From a virus (Duplodnaviria; Heunggongvirae; Uroviricota; Caudoviricetes): a stretch of DNA of 33,807 nucleotides. The translations under genes and the position numbers were made by a program. The DNA lies in the IMG/VR virus record IMGVR_UViG_2695420701_000007, positions 1 through 33,807 of that record. The stretch is one strand, 5' to 3'. The notes under the pieces are model-generated. The model saw nothing but the letters and a program-made list of their open reading frames with translations. It had not been told where the DNA came from and did no database searches. This document shows positions 15,927-25,451 of this stretch, piece by piece. The number at the start of each line of letters is the position of its first letter. The first letter of the stretch is position 1.

Positions 15927-16978
15927 GTAAACGTAAAAGCGCACGCCTGCGTAAACGGGCACAGACAGAAAATTTTACTCCCGGACGCGGCAATATTATC
16001 ACTTTCGGGGAGCCGGAACCGATACTGACTACCGGCACGGAATACATCAACGTCTGGTATAACGGTAGCTACAACTACTGGACACTACCAATAGACAGAC
16101 TTGCGCTCGCGCAGTTGCCGAATCTTAACGCCCAGCATGGCGGCGTACTGTATGCACGCAAAAATATGGTGTGTGCCAGCTACCAGGGGGGTGGACTGAC
16201 GACCGATCAGATGGAAATGGCTGTCTTTGACTACCTGCTGTTTGGTGATGTGGCCATTCTGAAGGTCCGTAACGGGTGGGGACGGGTGGTGGCGCTGGCA
16301 CCATTACCGTCTTTGTATCTGCGTCGCAGCAAGCAACTTGATTTTATCGTGTTACAGGAGGGCGAGCCGCTGGTCTATTCGCCGTCTGATGTTGTGTTTT
16401 TACGTATGCATGATCCGCGACAGCAGATTTATGGACTGCCTGATTATATCGGTGGTATTCATTCAGCGTTACTGAACAGTGAGGCGACCATTTTCAGACG
16501 TCGCTACTATCACAACGGTGCGCATATGGGGTTCATCATGTACGCGTCCGACCCGAATATGTCTGTTGAGGCTGAAGAAGCTATACGTAAAAAAATAGAG
16601 AGCGGTAACGGGCTTGGGAATTTCCGTAACATGTTTATCAGTATCCCAAAAGGGCAACCGGACGGGATTAAAATTATTCCGGTTGGGGATATTCAGCAAA
16701 AAGATGAGTTTTCAAATGTGAAGAATATCAGCGCTCAGGATGTTCTTACGGCGCACCGCTTTCCGGCTGGTCTTGCCGGTATTATCCCGCAAAATGCGAG
16801 CGGACTTGGCGATCCCGATAAGGCAAGGACAACCTATGGACGGGATGAAGTGACACCTGTCTGCCGTAAATTCATGCAGGCTGTGAACAGCGATCCCGAA
16901 ATCCCCCCGTCGTTACACCTTAATTTTACGCTGGAAGATGTGGAAAATGTGGTGTCTGCGCTGGCTGATGAAAAATAA
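15923..16978 (+). CDS. Q: Portal protein, P2 gpQ-like
   Basis: Listed ORF 15902-16978; probable start at MSKRKSARLRK overlapping the terminase stop; FGEPEPIL near the N-terminus as in gpQ-type portals. Confidence 0.75.
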   Translation: MSKRKSARLRKRAQTENFTPGRGNIITFGEPEPILTTGTEYINVWYNGSYNYWTLPIDRLALAQLPNLNAQHGGVLYARKNMVCASYQGGGLTTDQMEMAVFDYLLFGDVAILKVRNGWGRVVALAPLPSLYLRRSKQLDFIVLQEGEPLVYSPSDVVFLRMHDPRQQIYGLPDYIGGIHSALLNSEATIFRRRYYHNGAHMGFIMYASDPNMSVEAEEAIRKKIESGNGLGNFRNMFISIPKGQPDGIKIIPVGDIQQKDEFSNVKNISAQDVLTAHRFPAGLAGIIPQNASGLGDPDKARTTYGRDEVTPVCRKFMQAVNSDPEIPPSLHLNFTLEDVENVVSALADEK

Positions 16979-17040
16979 CCCGAAAAAGACTATATTACCC
17001 CTGCAACCGGTCAGATTGTGGGGGGGTTATGGCGGGTGTG

Positions 17041-17304
17041 ATGAAAATTGAATGTCCGGCGTGTCACTGCCGGGCGGCTATACGCAAAACTGCATGGCAG
17101 GATGACGCAAAAACGCTGGCGGTAGTTTATTGCACCTGCACTAATTCTGACTGCAATATGCGTTTTTCGCTCAATCTTTCCGATCTTCGCGTGATTTCAC
17201 CCAGTGACCTGCAAACTGATGGTGTCGTTAAAGCATTGCTCCAGCGCCTTAAACCAGACGAAAGGCAAATGGCACTGGATATTCTGCTCAGTGATGGCGC
17301 GTAA
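17041..17304 (+). CDS. ogr: Ogr/Delta-like zinc-finger late-gene activator
   Basis: Listed ORF 17029-17304; likely start MKIECPACHC...; Cys pattern CPAC-x-C ... CTCTNSDC matches the Ogr/Delta C4 zinc finger. Confidence 0.7.
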   Translation: MKIECPACHCRAAIRKTAWQDDAKTLAVVYCTCTNSDCNMRFSLNLSDLRVISPSDLQTDGVVKALLQRLKPDERQMALDILLSDGA

Positions 17305-17386
17305 GTGCCATTCTGTGGGGCGGTGGATCTTCCGCTTCCTCGCCCTGACAGACTCACCGCTATGCGGTTCGCTAATCAGGGGCTGC

Positions 17387-17403
17387 GGCGAGCGGTTTTG
17401 CAC
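17387..17403. other. Candidate cos (cohesive end) site
   Basis: GGCGAGCGGTTTTGCAC resembles the P2 cos core GGCGAGGCGGGGAAAGCAC as I recall it; lies in a convergent intergenic region downstream of Q and ogr. Confidence 0.3.
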
Positions 17404-17438
17404 AATATGATCCAGTACAGCAACAGAGAGATTTAGTT

Positions 17439-17957
17439 TTATTCGAAGCTGGCAAGAATCTGTTCTCGAACAGAAGATTTCATCGTTAACCCACGATCCA
17501 GGAAAAATTGGAAATGCATTAAGGCTTGTTGTTTGTGGATAAATCTCCTGCGCACAGCCTCCTGGAGTAGCCCTCCGTGGCGGGCGGCTTTTACACCGCG
17601 TTCCGCACACGTTTTATAAACCGCATTATCCGCCGAAAGACATGTTGCATCATGTATTCTCGCGTTAACAACGCAGCTTATGTCCGCATACTTCAATGCT
17701 CTCCTGCGATTTTTTATCTCAGCCATTTCAATAAAATGTTCAGGTTCGTAATCATTGGTGAAATTGTATGGAAGTTGCAGGCGTGTAAGCTGTTCCTGAA
17801 CATCAAGATTGTATTTAGCTTTTAGTTCCTCGCAGACATAGGGGTCAATCCACACACCACCCGGGTAAATTTGCCAGATAAGATCTAAGCATTTACCTTC
17901 GTAAAAATCAGACAGTACATTCGTATCGATAACACATCTGGGGCATTCAAACGGCAT
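17439..17957 (-). CDS. PIN-like domain protein (DUF4411-like), putative toxin/nuclease
   Basis: Listed ORF 17439-17990; probable start MPFECPRCVIDTNVLSDFYEG (complement of 17955-17957), overlapping the upstream gene stop by about 11 nt. VIDTNVL is the typical N-terminal strand-1 motif of PIN domains; region is AT-rich. Confidence 0.55.
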   Translation of the reverse strand: MPFECPRCVIDTNVLSDFYEGKCLDLIWQIYPGGVWIDPYVCEELKAKYNLDVQEQLTRLQLPYNFTNDYEPEHFIEMAEIKNRRRALKYADISCVVNARIHDATCLSADNAVYKTCAERGVKAARHGGLLQEAVRRRFIHKQQALMHFQFFLDRGLTMKSSVREQILASFE

Positions 17958-19092
17958 CCTCTCCGGCCTCCTGTTCGTCGTACCATTCATCCAGAAGATT
18001 GCTGAGAGCTTTTCTGTCTAATTCTAAAAGTTCAGATATGAAGGTTTCCGACGCGGAACCGGCTTCCCATGCTTTACGCGATAAGACGGTTAGGCGACCT
18101 TTATAATTTAGTGCTTCCCTTATGGGATTTGGCTCGTGTCTCTTCCAGCCTTTACGATTGGCGGTTGCCCATAGGTATCTAGTGTTTTGCTGATTAATTA
18201 AATTACATTTACTAAGACGCTCAATGATGCAAGTGGCTGATACTCTGAAAATGCTTTTTAGTCTAAGGACGGTTTCCTCATACGCCCATCCACCACCTTG
18301 CATGACGAATTGTTTTCGCAACGCGCTTTCTGGTACCAAAAAACAAGCAGCAAAGTGATTAGCAACTTTTTCTTCCGGTGAAATTGCTTTGCCATTAGTT
18401 TTATAGCTTTTAGCAGGGCCATCATACTCATCACGGTGGAAGATAAGATGAGCATATTCATGGCAAATACTGAAGATTTGACGTTCTATTGAAATGCTGT
18501 CGTGAACATTTACATAAATCGCGGTACCGTATTTGTTCGAAAACGCAGAAAATCCGAATACCATCCCTTTATCGGTTTCCTCGCGATTGAACGGGATCAC
18601 TCGAATATCCGATGCTTCCAAAATGGCTACAATGTCACCAACGCAAGTAGCGTTTCCCATACCAAGACGGAAACGTTCTTCCATAGCCTTATCTTCGACT
18701 CTTCGCAAATCTTCTGCTTTGGCGGTAAAAACAGGCATTGAGTTAGGAAGATCTTCTGGCAAATTAGCATCAGCAGCTTCCTCAATTGCATTGATATTTT
18801 TTAACTTTTCAATCAACTCATTGCGAAGTCTGGCATCCAACAAATCCGGACTATCTGCTCGCATTGCAAAACGAAACTCGCCATCATCTTGCTCATAAAA
18901 ATACCCGACAGGCTTATCGAAAATCTTGCAGAGCATGATGAGTTGGGTAACGCTTGGGACGCCTAGCGCCTGCTCAAACTTACTGTAGGTTTGACGAACA
19001 ACACCGATCGCATCTGCGACGGCGCTTGCACTCATTCCTGCGTCGTTTCTGGCCTGAACCAAGCGTTCTGCTATACGCTGTTGAATGTTCAT
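17947..19092 (-). CDS. XRE-family HTH domain fused to ImmA/IrrE-type zinc metallopeptidase (COG2856-like)
   Basis: 381 aa; N-terminal HTH (MSASAVADAIGVVRQTYSKFEQ), C-terminal HExxH motif (ICHEYAHLIF) in a context typical of ImmA/IrrE peptidases; AT-rich codon usage. Confidence 0.65.
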   Translation of the reverse strand: MNIQQRIAERLVQARNDAGMSASAVADAIGVVRQTYSKFEQALGVPSVTQLIMLCKIFDKPVGYFYEQDDGEFRFAMRADSPDLLDARLRNELIEKLKNINAIEEAADANLPEDLPNSMPVFTAKAEDLRRVEDKAMEERFRLGMGNATCVGDIVAILEASDIRVIPFNREETDKGMVFGFSAFSNKYGTAIYVNVHDSISIERQIFSICHEYAHLIFHRDEYDGPAKSYKTNGKAISPEEKVANHFAACFLVPESALRKQFVMQGGGWAYEETVLRLKSIFRVSATCIIERLSKCNLINQQNTRYLWATANRKGWKRHEPNPIREALNYKGRLTVLSRKAWEAGSASETFISELLELDRKALSNLLDEWYDEQEAGEDAV

Positions 19093-19376
19093 ACGTCACC
19101 TGAATTTAACAATGGTGGCTCTTATGGGTTTAGATTGGTTAATTATTACTAACATTATGAATGGAGAGTTGCAAAAATCATAATTAAATTATGCAAATTT
19201 CATGGAGTGTGATGTGGTGTGGGTTCACACTCTCTGCTGATTACATCCAGGGCGGTTTCCGCCCTGGCTCTGCTTACTCAGGAAATAACGCCCGGATATT
19301 TCCGGCCATCTGACTGGTTATCTGTGCGGTTGGTACTGGCTGTGGCGTGGGCGTTCTGCCCTGTTTGCGCCCTGAC

Positions 19377-19745
19377 CTATGCAATCCGCGCCGGATTCAT
19401 ATGGCACATGTTGTGTCTTTTTTCTGCATGGTAATGAGCTTTGTTCTCGTTAAACGGTAACACCTCATTCAGCCCGGCACTTCTGAAATCAGCGTGTAAT
19501 TGCTCCAGTACTGTTTCTTTATCAGCACCCGTTAATTCGAGATAATCCCAGAGGCTGGCGCATAAACCACAGTTTCGCGAAAATATTCTGCCTGGATTTG
19601 CTCCGTTTTTCAGCCACAAATCATAAGTAATATAAAATCCGTGAAGTTGTTGCCTGATACTTTCTTTGATTTCCTGCGCTGGCACGGTGCCTGGTAATTG
19701 CTCTCTCATTGTGAATCTCTCCTGTGTTGTGCCGGTCTGGCGCAT
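19377..19745 (-). CDS. Hypothetical protein
   Basis: 122 aa ORF in the early operon downstream of replication gene A; start uncertain (alternative Met at MREQLPG). Confidence 0.35.
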   Translation of the reverse strand: MRQTGTTQERFTMREQLPGTVPAQEIKESIRQQLHGFYITYDLWLKNGANPGRIFSRNCGLCASLWDYLELTGADKETVLEQLHADFRSAGLNEVLPFNENKAHYHAEKRHNMCHMNPARIA

Positions 19746-20137
19746 GAATGGCGCTGCGGTAAAAAGACCCTTTGCGTCAGTGCGGCCTTGCGATTGACGG
19801 CAGTCAGCGTTCTGGCCAGCGCGACATTGTGTTTGCGGGTCTGCTCTTCGTGGTACTTCTGCATGATTTTCCCGGCCGGCGTGAGTGGTTCCGGCTCTTC
19901 CGGTGAACGGCGCGGACGAACGGCAACTATCCAGCTCTGATATTCACTGCCCGGTCGCCTGTTAAGTATGTCGGTGATGGTGGTTGTGGTGGTGCGATCG
20001 GGGCTGGCCACCGTGATTTCCAGTTCGTCCCCGGGCTGTGGTCTTGTGGCTACGCCTCTCAGTGTCATGGCTGGCGTGCGCTGGCGCATAACGGCGTCGA
20101 ACTGCTGACGCTGCATGGTGCAGTGAAATCGCGTCAT
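19706..20137 (-). CDS. Hypothetical protein downstream of replication gene A
   Basis: 143 aa ORF overlapping the end of gene A; Thr/Pro/Arg-rich. Confidence 0.35.
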   Translation of the reverse strand: MTRFHCTMQRQQFDAVMRQRTPAMTLRGVATRPQPGDELEITVASPDRTTTTTITDILNRRPGSEYQSWIVAVRPRRSPEEPEPLTPAGKIMQKYHEEQTRKHNVALARTLTAVNRKAALTQRVFLPQRHSCARPAQHRRDSQ

Positions 20138-22626
20138 GATCTTACCTCCGCTGACGACTCCTGTGTGATGACGATGCGGCGGGTTGTGGCGCTCCAGTAC
20201 GCGATACGCCCGTCGCCCGGGCGAACGCGGGCACCGTTACTCACGGAAATAATGGCTGCGTCAGGCAGCTGCACACCCAGCGCGTCGAGTTCGCGGGTGA
20301 TTTGTGCGATGGTCGTGGTGTCGACAGGCACGACAACCTCCACCCTGACAGGGGTGTCTGATGCTGGTCTGGTGTTATTTTGTCCGGTATCCGTGGCGGG
20401 CGGCTGATTTTTAAGCTGTCTGATGAGCTGTTTCCGCTCGTAATGGCTCAATCCCTGCAACCATTGTGTCAGGCCATTTTCCGGAAGTGTCAGACGTTTC
20501 TCCTGCTGCCTGTTTTCTGTGCCGGTTCCGGCTGTTTTTTCGTCGCCGGGACAGTTATTGCCACGAGTCCAAGGGGCGGCAGGGCCGCCCTGAAGGTCAA
20601 AACCATTTTCGCGGGCGCTGTCTTCCGCTTCCGGTTTACGTCTTACCAGCTTCCAGTTGTCCGGATGCGTGCACACACGGGAGGATTCCCCGATGAGTGG
20701 CGACCAGATCCCGTAAATCTGTACGCTCTGTTCGCCGTAATCGTTCAGCTCATCTGCGAGGTCGTAGGCGGTGCGAATCAGGTAGTCCTTACGTGGAACA
20801 AGTACGCCGCCCTGTTTCTCTATGTAGGTGGCAAAACACCCGGCATCAGCGGCAGCAAGAACCGCATCCATTGCGTCATCCTTCAGCCGTTGCGGGCCTT
20901 CCGGGTTGCGTGCCATCTGGCTGGCAAGGCGGCGCAGTTCACGCCATACCTGACGGGAGGGGATGCCAAAGAACTGGAACTGGCGGACCCGGTGAAGGCG
21001 CGCCCAGCCGATGGCGCGTTCCACGCTTTCTGCCATCGTCTTTCCTGATTCGTCGTCGATGCGCGGTTTGCCTGTTTTCGGGTCAATGCCATCCACGGCG
21101 TGGCTGTCCAGGTTCTTTCCGATGTAGGTGGCGATATAGCTGGTCGGCGTACCTTTCGAACCGTCGACGTACTCCGCCTTAAAGCGCGGAGTTATGTCAT
21201 CGCCCAGCTCGTGGCGGTCTTCACGAATGGCAATATCGCGGGCGATGGTCACGATGCTGTCGATTTCTTCAGGATGTGCAAAGACCATCATATGCCAGTG
21301 CACCGTGCCGTCATGGTGAGGCTCCACCGTGCGGATGCCATACCAGCGCAGGCCCTTGCGGTCCAGTCTGTTACGAACGGCTTTAAAAAAAGTGTTAACC
21401 AGATAATCACTGGAATCGCGCATGGTAGCCCCGTTCCATTTGGGGTTCGGATGACCGTTCTCCGTTGTTGCGTGGTATTTTGACGGGCAGGTGACAGTCA
21501 GAAACACCGCTTTGTCGCCACGGGATTCGGCTATAAGTTCCGCCCCTTTCATGGTGGCCATCATTTCTGCCTTACGGTGAACCGGGTTACTTACTCCCGC
21601 GTAATACACTGTCTCGAGATCAATCGTGAACCCGTCTTCATTTTCCAGCATGAAACTTTTCAGGAAATCGCGTGTTTTCTCGCGCTGTGCGCGAAACTCA
21701 CTTAACGCGTCCTGGCTCAGATAGGGCGATGTTTTTCTGGAAACCAGACAGGCGGCGCGGAGTTGTTCTTCTCTCCACTCGCAACGTAAAAGCCACAGTT
21801 TGCGTTTCCACCAGTCCGCACAGGTCAGGCGAAGGATTGCGCCCGGCAGCAGTTCCGTGTCCGGTTCGTTCTTGCGGTCTTTGTCTGTTGTCAGCGCGTC
21901 ATAATGTGGAGGCATGGCGTGCAGGTGTAGCGCCATGCGGGCCAGCATCTGATACGCCTTCAGTGCCACCTCCATGGTCAGCTCGCCATCTCTGGCACCG
22001 AAACCATCACAGAGTGTTTCAAAGGAGCTGCTGAACATTGCCGCCGTCATGGTGCCCAGCGTCTGTATCTGGTGCTTGTTAAGCTGCGGCAGGTACAGCA
22101 AATCGTCCAGGCGTTCGCGTCCGGCAAGGGCGCGATAACCCGGTGTCAGCCAGCGGCTGTCGGTGCGGTCCAGTCGTTCGAATATTTTGCGCAGGGTTCC
22201 GCGCGCGTAGCCCTCTGATGGTCGACTCTTTTTGCCTTTCTGGCGGTCAGATTCCTGCTTCTTACGTAAAAAAGAGAGGCGGCGGCTCAGAGGTTCACGC
22301 AGATAAACAGGTAGCGCCTTTAGTGTGACAAATGCACGGGCCACCGGGTCTTGTTCTGTTGCCTGGCGCTTGCTGATGATGCTTTGTGTTACCTTCTCGC
22401 GCCGTTCGTCCTCATCGAGGGCGACCATGAGTTTTTTACCCATGTCTGACTGCACAAAAAAGGCTTCTTCTTCCGCCTCCCTGACTTCCTGTGCTTTCAG
22501 ATCTGCTTCCTGGTAGTAGCGTATGGCCTGTTGCAACGGGGTTTCAGGCGTAGGCTGATACTTCGCAAATGTGGCTGGGTCAATGGCCTGCCGTGGTTCG
22601 TTCCAGTCCCAGGTAAATTCACTCAT
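20134..22626 (-). CDS. A: Replication initiation endonuclease, P2 gpA-like (rolling-circle Rep)
   Basis: Listed ORF 20134-22653 (839 aa); probable start MSEFTWDWNEP. Size and position (end of early operon) match P2 gene A; contains His/Tyr-rich central region (GTVHWHMMVFAHPEE ... TPTSYIATYIGKN) compatible with HUH-type endonuclease motifs. Confidence 0.8.
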   Translation of the reverse strand: MSEFTWDWNEPRQAIDPATFAKYQPTPETPLQQAIRYYQEADLKAQEVREAEEEAFFVQSDMGKKLMVALDEDERREKVTQSIISKRQATEQDPVARAFVTLKALPVYLREPLSRRLSFLRKKQESDRQKGKKSRPSEGYARGTLRKIFERLDRTDSRWLTPGYRALAGRERLDDLLYLPQLNKHQIQTLGTMTAAMFSSSFETLCDGFGARDGELTMEVALKAYQMLARMALHLHAMPPHYDALTTDKDRKNEPDTELLPGAILRLTCADWWKRKLWLLRCEWREEQLRAACLVSRKTSPYLSQDALSEFRAQREKTRDFLKSFMLENEDGFTIDLETVYYAGVSNPVHRKAEMMATMKGAELIAESRGDKAVFLTVTCPSKYHATTENGHPNPKWNGATMRDSSDYLVNTFFKAVRNRLDRKGLRWYGIRTVEPHHDGTVHWHMMVFAHPEEIDSIVTIARDIAIREDRHELGDDITPRFKAEYVDGSKGTPTSYIATYIGKNLDSHAVDGIDPKTGKPRIDDESGKTMAESVERAIGWARLHRVRQFQFFGIPSRQVWRELRRLASQMARNPEGPQRLKDDAMDAVLAAADAGCFATYIEKQGGVLVPRKDYLIRTAYDLADELNDYGEQSVQIYGIWSPLIGESSRVCTHPDNWKLVRRKPEAEDSARENGFDLQGGPAAPWTRGNNCPGDEKTAGTGTENRQQEKRLTLPENGLTQWLQGLSHYERKQLIRQLKNQPPATDTGQNNTRPASDTPVRVEVVVPVDTTTIAQITRELDALGVQLPDAAIISVSNGARVRPGDGRIAYWSATTRRIVITQESSAEVRS

Positions 22627-23012
22627 GGTTGACACCCTGTCACGCGTTGCCATTCCTGCGAGAAGAGGGCAGAAAGACGGTTAAACTCAGTGGTGTATTC
22701 ACTCAGCGAGGCACACCCGCCAGCGGTGCGATGCGCCAGCATTGCTGCAAACACGGAGGCAGGGGAGTTGTAATACGCCAGCAGGGAGTCGCCGTGTGGT
22801 GTCAGGGTGTACAGGGCCAGACCGTGTGGTGTGAAGTCCACGCGGTAACAGTCGTCCACGATGAAATAAAGGGGGCCTGCGTTCTCTGGTTTTGTGGTGC
22901 GAGCCTGGCTGGCGCGGGCACGGAGATAGAAATCAAACATTGCCTGAAGTTTTGGAGCCAGACGGGTGTCCTGTGTGCGCACCCATTTTACGAAGTCATG
23001 ACGGTCAATCAT
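22623..23012 (-). CDS. Hypothetical protein upstream of gene A
   Basis: 129 aa ORF, stop adjacent to gene A start. Confidence 0.4.
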   Translation of the reverse strand: MIDRHDFVKWVRTQDTRLAPKLQAMFDFYLRARASQARTTKPENAGPLYFIVDDCYRVDFTPHGLALYTLTPHGDSLLAYYNSPASVFAAMLAHRTAGGCASLSEYTTEFNRLSALFSQEWQRVTGCQP

Positions 23013-23635: not shown

Positions 23636-24190
23636 TCAGTTCGGCAGCAGTTCGTACAACAGGGCGTCGGCGGCGGTCCGGCGGTTGTAGAGGTGAAACG
23701 CCGTATCATCGCTGATGTGCATTTGCATCGTGATGTTGATGTGTTTCGCGATTATGCAGAACGTCATGTTGCGTCTGTCGCGTAGCTCCGTAACCAGCTC
23801 AGCCAGACGATCGCTGTATCTGGTGCAATGGTGGCTCTCGCCGCATTTCTTAAGGCTGTAACCCCGTTTATGCAGTGTGTACCTCACGGTGCACTCGCTG
23901 CGTCCCACCTTCCGGGCCAGTTCCCGTGCGGTTTTTGCGTGACGGTTTTTGGTGAGAAAGGCGATGGCTTCTGCACTCAGCGGTGCTTTTCTCTTGCGAC
24001 CAATCAACCCGCGATTACGTAAAAAAAGAATCCGGTGCATCACTGCGCTGCGGGTTCGCTGAAGTCGTTCAGCCATTTGCCATGTGCTGTGATCCTGATA
24101 AAGCGAGATAAGCAGTTCGTCTTCCTGTTGTGTCCAGGCACTGACGTGCTTCGGTGCTTTACCTGGTCCCCCCATTGGTTTCAGAAACAT
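23636..24190 (-). CDS. Putative DNA-binding regulator with two HTH-like repeats
   Basis: 184 aa; two helix-turn-helix-like segments (STWQMAERLQRTRSAVMHRI and TARELARKVGRSECTVRYTL). Confidence 0.4.
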   Translation of the reverse strand: MFLKPMGGPGKAPKHVSAWTQQEDELLISLYQDHSTWQMAERLQRTRSAVMHRILFLRNRGLIGRKRKAPLSAEAIAFLTKNRHAKTARELARKVGRSECTVRYTLHKRGYSLKKCGESHHCTRYSDRLAELVTELRDRRNMTFCIIAKHINITMQMHISDDTAFHLYNRRTAADALLYELLPN

Positions 24191-24492
24191 GATTTGGCCT
24201 CCTTACGGCTTTCTGGTGTGGAGATGATCAGATTCAGTTTCAGGGCGGTGGCGTGTTCCTCTTTTGCCCCCGGCGAGTCCTCCCAGCCATCCAGCAGGTA
24301 AATCACATCGGCACAGTGCAGCATGGCGCTCCCGATAAGCATGTAGTCCCTGTATCTCAGCCCGTCAGGGAGTGTTGCGGGGTTGAGTACGGTATGACCC
24401 TGCATCCTCAGGCGGGTCGCCGTCATGGTGAAGGCGGTGCGGTTGAAATCAGGCTTCCCCGTCATGGGGCCAGCGATATAGATAACGGCCAT
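24181..24492 (-). CDS. Nucleoside 2-deoxyribosyltransferase-like protein (DUF4406-like)
   Basis: 103 aa starting MAVIYIAGPMTGKPDFNRTAF, the typical N-terminus of the DUF4406 / deoxyribosyltransferase-like fold found in phages. Confidence 0.5.
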   Translation of the reverse strand: MAVIYIAGPMTGKPDFNRTAFTMTATRLRMQGHTVLNPATLPDGLRYRDYMLIGSAMLHCADVIYLLDGWEDSPGAKEEHATALKLNLIISTPESRKEAKSCF

Positions 24493-25451
24493 TACATGAT
24501 CTCCGTGGTGGGGTGTGGAGCGGGAATGTGAGACAGCCAGCCCGCATTGACATCCCGGATCCGGACCTCACGGGCTGGCGGATAAACACCAATCACCTCT
24601 TTTGCCTGCTGGCGTGCACTGCTGCTGGCAGCCACAGCGCGGCGAACGCTCAGGGTGTGCAGCTCAAACGAGGAATAGATCTGCCGGGTTTCGGAGGTGT
24701 CACTGTTGGAGACCACCGGGTGGATACCGTAACGCTGCCAGGCGTTCATCATGAGCGCCGCAAGGTCACGGTGGTCTTTGCGGGTAAATGCCCGGCCGTT
24801 GTAGTGAGTGAACGCCTCTTTACCGTCCGGTGGCAGGTAGGGCGGATCGCAGTAAATGGCGATATCGCCGTGCACCGAAGAAAAACGGCGGATCTCAGCC
24901 GGCATTGTGAAGGCTGTACGGAAATCCGCGTGAATAAAGCGGGTCCGGGTCTCGTTGGCTTTATCAGCAAACAGGCGCATTTCCTGGCAGGGGAAATAAG
25001 GCATGCGGTGTTTGCCGAATGGCACATTGAATTCGCCTTTTTGGTTGGTGCGGTACAGGCCGTTAAAGCAATGGCGGTTCAGGTACAGAAACAGCGCTGC
25101 CCATTCCAGGGATTCGCCGCGTAATCTGTCGGTGGCCAGCGCGATGGTGTTAAATGCCCCGCGATGGCGTTTGTAGGCTTCCGGTGTGCCGCCATCCTTA
25201 AAGAGCGACCATGCACGATCCATTAATTCCGTGGTGTTGGTCGTCAGTTGCTGGTAGAAATTAATCAGCGCGGGGTTGCTGTCACACAATACGTAATAGT
25301 CATAATCCGTGTTCATGAAGACCGAGCCGCCGCCCACGAAGGGTTCGATCAGGCAGGCGGCTTTGGGTAAATATTCGCGCAGCTGCGGCATGATACTGAA
25401 TTTGCCGCCCGCCCATTTGAGCGGTGAGCGCTGGTTCAGAATACCTTTCAT
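24492..25451 (-). CDS. dam: DNA adenine methyltransferase (Dam-like, D12 class N6-A MTase)
   Basis: 319 aa; N-terminal LKWAGGK motif, catalytic DPPY motif (IAIYCDPPYLPP), FxGxG-like SAM region (EPFVGGGSV). Confidence 0.8.
   Translation of the reverse strand: MKGILNQRSPLKWAGGKFSIMPQLREYLPKAACLIEPFVGGGSVFMNTDYDYYVLCDSNPALINFYQQLTTNTTELMDRAWSLFKDGGTPEAYKRHRGAFNTIALATDRLRGESLEWAALFLYLNRHCFNGLYRTNQKGEFNVPFGKHRMPYFPCQEMRLFADKANETRTRFIHADFRTAFTMPAEIRRFSSVHGDIAIYCDPPYLPPDGKEAFTHYNGRAFTRKDHRDLAALMMNAWQRYGIHPVVSNSDTSETRQIYSSFELHTLSVRRAVAASSSARQQAKEVIGVYPPAREVRIRDVNAGWLSHIPAPHPTTEIM

Follow-up and report, generated by a model that had tools for sequence, protein, structure and literature searches.

The cargo hotspots of P2-like phages, including the one that runs from the replication gene to cos, were first described in PMC9122126. 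About 90% of pseudogenes in P2 and P4 elements are very small intergenic sequences, and small pseudogenes in P2 defence loci have been read as remnants of intense recombination (PMC13586616). PIN partners are known for the RmrA antitoxin node, or class, of RosmerTA (PMC10440598); no operator determined for the RmrA-type HTH-peptidase family was found in the literature consulted, that paper included.

The present study analyzes a 284-bp region (19093-19376) of the window, by which we mean the whole 33,807-nt stretch of viral DNA. A preliminary description had taken the region as structured and intergenic, with an inverted repeat as plausible operator of the downstream HTH protein and hairpins that could form a terminator-like insulator or a small RNA. 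Comparison with related loci makes it likely that these 284 bp are instead a composite recombination junction at a P2-like cargo hotspot, and not a single regulatory unit. What is said below about the function of the region, of its hairpin and of the operator is inferred from sequence.

The prophage and its RmrA-like/PIN pair

The window is a P2-like (Peduoviridae-type) prophage, in which Phage_GPA, portal, terminase and Ogr-like genes are present. Terminase and portal, together with an Ogr-like zinc-finger gene, lie on the plus strand. On the minus strand the order is Phage_GPA (the replication endonuclease, 20134-22653, by Pfam), orf143, orf122, the region 19093-19376, a protein with HTH_3 and Peptidase_M78 domains, and a PIN protein; the region sits in the cargo hotspot with the replication gene on one side and cos/portal on the other. 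The zinc-finger gene (17029-17304, plus strand), between the portal gene and the cargo, scores 23.5 bits as Ogr/Delta-like, just under the Pfam threshold of 26.3, and RefSeq names it Ogr/Delta-like.

The gene immediately downstream of the region (17947-19092, minus strand) is predicted to encode an RmrA-like antitoxin or repressor with an N-terminal XRE-type HTH and a Peptidase_M78 (ImmA/IrrE) domain (Pfam HTH_3 and Peptidase_M78, PADLOC, NCBIfam). PADLOC matched this HTH-peptidase to RmrA, the RosmerTA antitoxin, at 3e-35, and its match to the NCBIfam spr1629 repressor/antitoxin falls under the cut-off. It is followed by a PIN-domain protein, presumed to be the toxin (17439-17990, minus strand; Pfam, RefSeq). 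As in RosmerTA, a Zn-peptidase (ImmA/M78) antitoxin with an N-terminal HTH stands beside a variable toxin (PADLOC, Pfam), and the pair is classed by prediction as RosmerTA-like, with an HTH-peptidase antitoxin and a PIN toxin; its toxicity and role in defence are likewise predicted. The longest PIN ORF starts at 17990 and overlaps the upstream gene by 44 nt (17947-17990). The RefSeq start corresponds to window position 17957 and leaves an overlap of 11 nt, an arrangement suggestive of translational coupling between antitoxin and toxin.

Gene debris and rearrangements at the junction

About 100 of the 284 bp are gene debris, and this debris comes from two different genes. The first is orf122 (19377-19745, minus strand), which by alignment is a shortened member of a family of prophage proteins without known function; no Pfam family was matched. 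A lambdoid prophage of E. coli CE0021a encodes a 158-aa homologue with TGG (Trp) where orf122 has its stop TAG (19377-19379), and the homology to CE0021a continues past the TAG down to 19356. The tail of the family past the premature stop (19357-19376, minus strand; VRAQTGQ) is recognized by its homology to the coding sequence of the 158-aa protein. The 3′ end of orf122 has evidently been shortened by a nonsense codon, and orf122 is probably a decaying gene.

The second piece (19274-19356, minus strand) is the 3′ remnant of a Plasmid_stab_B or ParR-like gene, annotated as “plasmid partitioning/stability”, and is identified by nucleotide homology and by a RefSeq pseudogene. It consists of the last ~27 codons with the TAA stop (19274-19276) of a gene found in P88-like (Xuanwuvirus) phages, where the intact gene has 312 nt, encodes 103 aa (Pfam Plasmid_stab_B, PF10784) and lies downstream of parM. 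Positions 19274-19368 match only the 3′ end of this gene in Xuanwuvirus P88_4B11, PhiR44_2, Chuche and about 500 E. coli genomes, and the partition-gene homology stops exactly at the TAA. Identity with the last ~95 nt of the gene is 85–93% in the phages and 97–98% in E. coli prophages with this cassette. Homology to part of an intact gene, reaching its stop with the rest missing, is the pattern of a pseudogene remnant, and in RefSeq NZ_CP011416 the remnant is already annotated as a pseudogene without its N-terminus, equivalent to window 19274-19351. The same HTH-PIN cassette lies downstream of the partition gene in E. coli AR_0128 and in 27 other complete genomes; intactness was inspected in AR_0128, where the cassette follows an intact partition gene and homology to the window ends at about 19367. 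The remnant is the only piece of the partition genes in the window, from which they are otherwise absent. A 319-aa and a 103-aa ORF at 24181-25451 were considered as a ParM/ParR pair and dropped after alignment.

The two remnants join at an 8-bp microhomology, CAGGRCAG (CAGGGCAG/CAGGACAG). Illegitimate recombination at this microhomology evidently fused the tail of orf122 to the last ~27 codons of the ParR-like gene, which had arrived from a P88-like phage along with the cargo. The term intergenic is accurate on the present ORF map, where no minus-strand ORF of at least 40 aa crosses 19093-19376, and inaccurate for 19274-19376, which is decayed coding sequence. The preliminary description had itself held that coding of these sequences in homologs would speak against its reading, and coding is what was found for 19274-19376, including the smallest of the three structures that it had listed. 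This is the 5-bp hairpin CCGGA-TATT-TCCGG (19292-19305, minus strand), which lies within codons ...MAGNIRA... of the partition-gene remnant. The hairpin sequence is also present in intact partition genes, with the stem broken in phage Chuche. Since it is inside the remnant and occurs in intact genes, the 5-bp hairpin needs no explanation of its own. Two small plus-strand ORFs (19191-19313 and 19219-19434) were set aside as lacking independent support; differences from relatives over these ORFs fit selection on the partition-gene frame of the opposite strand.

Several rearrangements have occurred at this locus. Three viral contigs with the same backbone (L141, L143 and L145, up to 96.6% identity) join window position 19472 directly to 17372 at a 2-nt microhomology, GC|GAAC (at about 1773 in these contigs). 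The 2.1-kb segment 17373-19471 is missing from them, and with it the 3′ end of orf122, the remnant, the hairpins and both cassette genes (HTH and PIN), so that they resemble deletion derivatives. An independent internal deletion of parM-par is found in L089/L117 (IMGVR_UViG_2617270964_000006) and in one complete genome, E. coli 2013C-3181 (H101); it joins parM codon ~20 to the final ~30 partition-gene codons, with a breakpoint about 10 nt from that of the window in the same gene. Two events are too few to speak of a breakpoint hotspot. IS600 (IS3 family) is inserted in the 3′ part of orf122, at a site equivalent to about 19412, in four complete E. coli genomes with the arrangement of the window and in one viral contig (L005 5478-6634; L139 1836-3101); the window itself is without the insertion.

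Among about 57 distinct viral loci with a 24-mer from the 3′ end of the partition gene, 53 have an intact gene. In one viral record (L174, IMGVR_UViG_2531839180_000004) a nonsense codon interrupts the partition gene internally (…NPAEA*RLAAW…), a further sign of partition-gene decay in some prophages. Selective retention of the 3′ end of the gene was considered and dropped, as the loci showed no more than two independent types of truncation and a single nonsense allele, too few for such a claim.

The hairpin behind the partition gene

In P88-like phages a conserved hairpin begins 4–11 nt past the stop codon of the partition gene, and comparison with these phages indicates that the 9-bp GC-rich hairpin at 19247-19267 is the form that it takes in the window. 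A direct check of the sequence found this hairpin, like the two other structures of the preliminary description, where it had been placed, with a perfect 9-bp stem (CCAGGGCGG, 19247-19255, and CCGCCCTGG, 19259-19267) and a 3-nt loop; its minus-strand RNA folds at -19.9 kcal/mol (z -5.6). A post-stop hairpin was present at about 73 of 79 viral partition-gene loci, 62 of them with CAGGGCR-loop-YGCCCTG, 9 with another GC hairpin and 2 with single-mismatch versions. Relatives have GC-rich stems of 7–10 bp and loops of 3–4 nt, and the loops vary freely (CATC, AGTT, AACT, TATT, GGTT, AAA and others). When 13 distinct variants were aligned, 96% of cells were paired and two stem pairs showed compensatory change, one from U-A to C-G (the window type) and one from G-C to A-U (in L050); 1 of 500 shuffles equalled this two-pair covariation. 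Cargo variants lose homology with each other at the 3′ edge of the hairpin. These comparisons assign the hairpin to the phage backbone and the partition gene, not to the defence cassette.

The suggestion of a terminator-like insulator holds up in part, and solely for the 9-bp hairpin. This hairpin, at the end of the neighbouring partition gene, is structurally conserved and shows covariation, and in the window it has the GC-rich stem and short loop of an intrinsic terminator. It is without a U-tract, and a T-rich tail on the sense strand is absent from every variant (on average 3.5 T among the 10 nt that follow the stem). The next same-strand gene begins only 37 nt past the hairpin in the commonest variants, and sense transcription must therefore read through it. 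A terminator-like score was obtained on the antisense strand of common variants (L012, L013), with a stem of 10–11 bp and the tail TTGTGTTATT. The antisense T-rich tail of most relatives has been lost in the window copy, where the tail is CTCTGCTTACTC and the scan called a terminator on neither strand. With no T-rich tail on either strand, the hairpin of the window may do little here. It is possible that in typical relatives the hairpin acts as an intrinsic terminator, which it resembles, against antisense transcription from the cargo or cos side, and it may serve as a 3′ stabilizer on sense transcripts. Most probably it would serve as a boundary mark or insulator that separates the early (replication/partition) operon from variable cargo.

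The suggestion of a small RNA found no such backing, either as an Rfam match or as a consensus promoter. A search of Rfam over 16900-19800 at a permissive E-value returned chance-level matches only, none better than E = 0.7, and a consensus scan of 19093-19376 found no promoter-like site on either strand.

The inverted repeat, the cassette leader and known systems

Between the hairpin and the cassette leader lies a 43-nt junction segment (19204-19246), identified by locus comparison, which contains the inverted repeat GAGTGTGA-N12-TCACACTC (19205-19232). In the window the repeat is as had been described, perfect over 8 bp (GAGTGTGA, 19205-19212; TCACACTC, 19225-19232) with a 12-nt spacer, and it has the dyad symmetry expected of an operator. 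Perfect inverted repeats with stems of at least 8 bp and loops of 3–20 nt number 18 in the whole window versus 8.3 ± 2.9 in dinucleotide shuffles, and on this count a lone 8-bp repeat is not beyond chance. Two perfect repeats within 284 bp arose in 0.17% of shuffles of the region (P about 0.002), a region that was picked because of them. The 43-nt segment occurs only where the cassette follows the partition gene, that is, in 32 of 5426 E. coli genomes and 7 viral contigs. Within the 32 carriers the 53-nt junction is identical to the window in 4 and has one mismatch in 28, with AR_0128 as the carrier checked base by base. The repeat is perfect only in the lineage of the window; AR_0128 and five viral contigs have TCACGCTC. 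In a scan of viral contigs for GAGTGTGA-N12-TCACRCTC, which yielded 25 stretches, the matches outside the contigs of this cassette were put down to chance, as they lay in unrelated contexts and had unrelated loops.

Does the repeat serve as an autoregulatory operator for the downstream HTH protein, with the hairpins as terminator-like insulator or small RNA of the same unit? Its dyad symmetry is perfect in the window, the protein downstream is of the XRE-type HTH kind within a repressor/antitoxin family, and type II antitoxins commonly bind palindromes near their own promoter. The position and the distribution of the repeat argue against such a role. It lies at -140 to -113 with its center 126 nt upstream of the ATG, and the block conserved with the cassette starts at about -111 (about 19203), leaving the repeat upstream of it. 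Homologues of 93%, 86%, 76% and 73% identity occur in other phage or chromosomal contexts, and their alignment with the window begins only at about 19203 and runs downstream from there. Residues 29-52 of the HTH do not vary across homologues of about 73–94% identity, and an operator would be expected to be conserved along with its DNA-binding domain; the repeat is not. No counterpart was found within 800 nt upstream of the HTH homologues, with at least 6 of 16 arm positions mismatched in 13 of 13 other loci. In most carriers the repeat is also imperfect, and the hairpins belong to the partition-gene backbone and remnant, not to the cassette. A single autoregulatory unit of this kind is very unlikely, and the downstream regulator probably does not have its operator in the inverted repeat. 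A tblastn search with the HTH protein against phage records gave only matches of at most 25% identity, useless for comparison of upstream sequence.

Another regulator could be proposed for the same site, either a CRP-like factor (TGTGA...TCACA) or a phage Ogr-type late activator. The arms do contain TGTGA and TCACA, and an Ogr-like zinc-finger gene is present nearby at 17029-17304. The consensus spacing for CRP is N6 and the Ogr-type dyad known from the P2 literature is TGT-N12-ACA. Here the CRP-like halves are spaced TGTGA-N12-TCACA and the TGT/ACA pairs lie 11 or 16 nt apart, not 12; judged by those general consensus spacings, both kinds of site were rejected on spacing. The arm substitution found in most carriers moreover strikes the TCACA core, and binding by either regulator is extremely unlikely.

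The repeat could alternatively act in RNA. The hairpin and the repeat stem would then form a structured leader on transcripts reading through from the early operon, attenuating or processing them, and the toxin-antitoxin cassette would depend mostly on its own promoter for expression. Folded as minus-strand RNA, the entire region is more stable than its shuffles (z -4.2), both stems are present in the minimum-energy and in the centroid structure, and the relatives require read-through past the hairpin. The repeat alone folds at -11.8 kcal/mol with z -3.8 on the minus strand versus -1.4 on the plus strand, and the sole arm substitution observed leaves a G.U pair in minus-strand RNA, where the plus strand would have C-A. 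A single substitution is not covariation, however; the loop of the repeat stem is 12 nt long and there is no U-tract, no other cassette lineage has the stem, and no Rfam family was matched. A leader of this description is quite unlikely for the region as a whole; a lineage-specific RNA role of the repeat may exist. In the recombination-junction reading that we prefer, the repeat would be part of a 43-nt lineage-specific spacer and have no conserved role. Given its lack of conservation, it is probably either fortuitous or a weak RNA stem.

The remaining ~110 nt (19093-19203, minus strand) would be the leader and promoter region of the cassette itself, conserved by locus comparison among cassette homologues in other contexts. 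It has a Shine-Dalgarno sequence AGGTGAC (19095-19101), the motifs GTTAA (19106-19110, -18) and TTAAC (19138-19142, -50), and the block CATAATGTTAGTAATAATTAACC (19137-19159), which is common to the closer homologues. TTAAC at -50 and GTTAA at -18 from the ATG were found in 7 of 7 loci compared, representing about 5 types of upstream sequence and 73–100% protein identity, and their positions are invariant even where the sequence between them is unrelated. The two motifs are reverse complements of each other and have a background frequency of 0.46 per 200 nt. They could be operator half-sites or could pair within the 5′ UTR, and on the comparison of homologous loci they are the best operator candidates here, better than the inverted repeat. 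A scan of the minus strand of the leader found no consensus sigma-70 promoter; the promoter and operator that actually serve the RmrA-like/PIN pair would be expected somewhere in this leader.

It is possible to join these elements in a more ambitious way, in which the end of the partition gene and its hairpin are a retained boundary module of P88-like and P2-like phages, the repeat stem tunes read-through into the toxin-antitoxin genes, and TTAAC/GTTAA is the operator. A retained module would explain why the last ~90 nt of the gene were kept in both rearrangements, that of the window and the parM-par deletion of L089/L117. If this were true, the module would insulate the early operon from any cargo and act as a homology anchor for swaps of defence cassettes, and TTAAC(-50)/GTTAA(-18) would be the first defined operator of a fused HTH-ImmA antitoxin. 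The combination as a whole is unlikely. As a composite junction, which is the explanation we favor, the region is an ordinary mosaic and nothing new in kind. It has little import beyond annotation, in that a stretch beside a defence cassette that seemed regulatory consists largely of recombination debris and a backbone hairpin, and the search for the operator of the cassette is redirected to 19093-19203.

Comparison with known systems leads back to the pseudogene remnants of P2-like hotspots (PMC13586616; PMC9122126). As there, the locus lies in a P2-like prophage between the replication gene and cos/portal, and short non-coding pieces homologous to neighbouring genes accompany intact defence genes and are put down to repeated recombination (PMC13586616). 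It differs in that the debris here comes from a ParR-like partition gene of a different genus-level backbone (P88-like) and that the junction of the window can be resolved to an 8-bp microhomology. Intrinsic terminators and intercistronic 3′ stem-loops are the nearest parallel to the 9-bp hairpin family, which is GC-rich, conserved in structure, placed directly after a stop codon and, in most relatives, provided with a T-rich tail on one strand; unlike terminators, no variant has a sense U-tract, and the window copy is without the antisense tail too. The protein of the window resembles ImmR/ImmA and RmrA of RosmerTA (PMC10440598) in combining an HTH with Peptidase_M78, in its PIN toxin partner and in its phage hotspot, whereas the repeat departs from autoregulatory operators of the XRE-HTH/ImmA type in not being conserved with the HTH, the conserved motifs lying nearer the gene. 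The locus thus adds one fully resolved case, with microhomology junctions, of cargo movement between P2-like backbones, in agreement with the published picture of recombination remnants.
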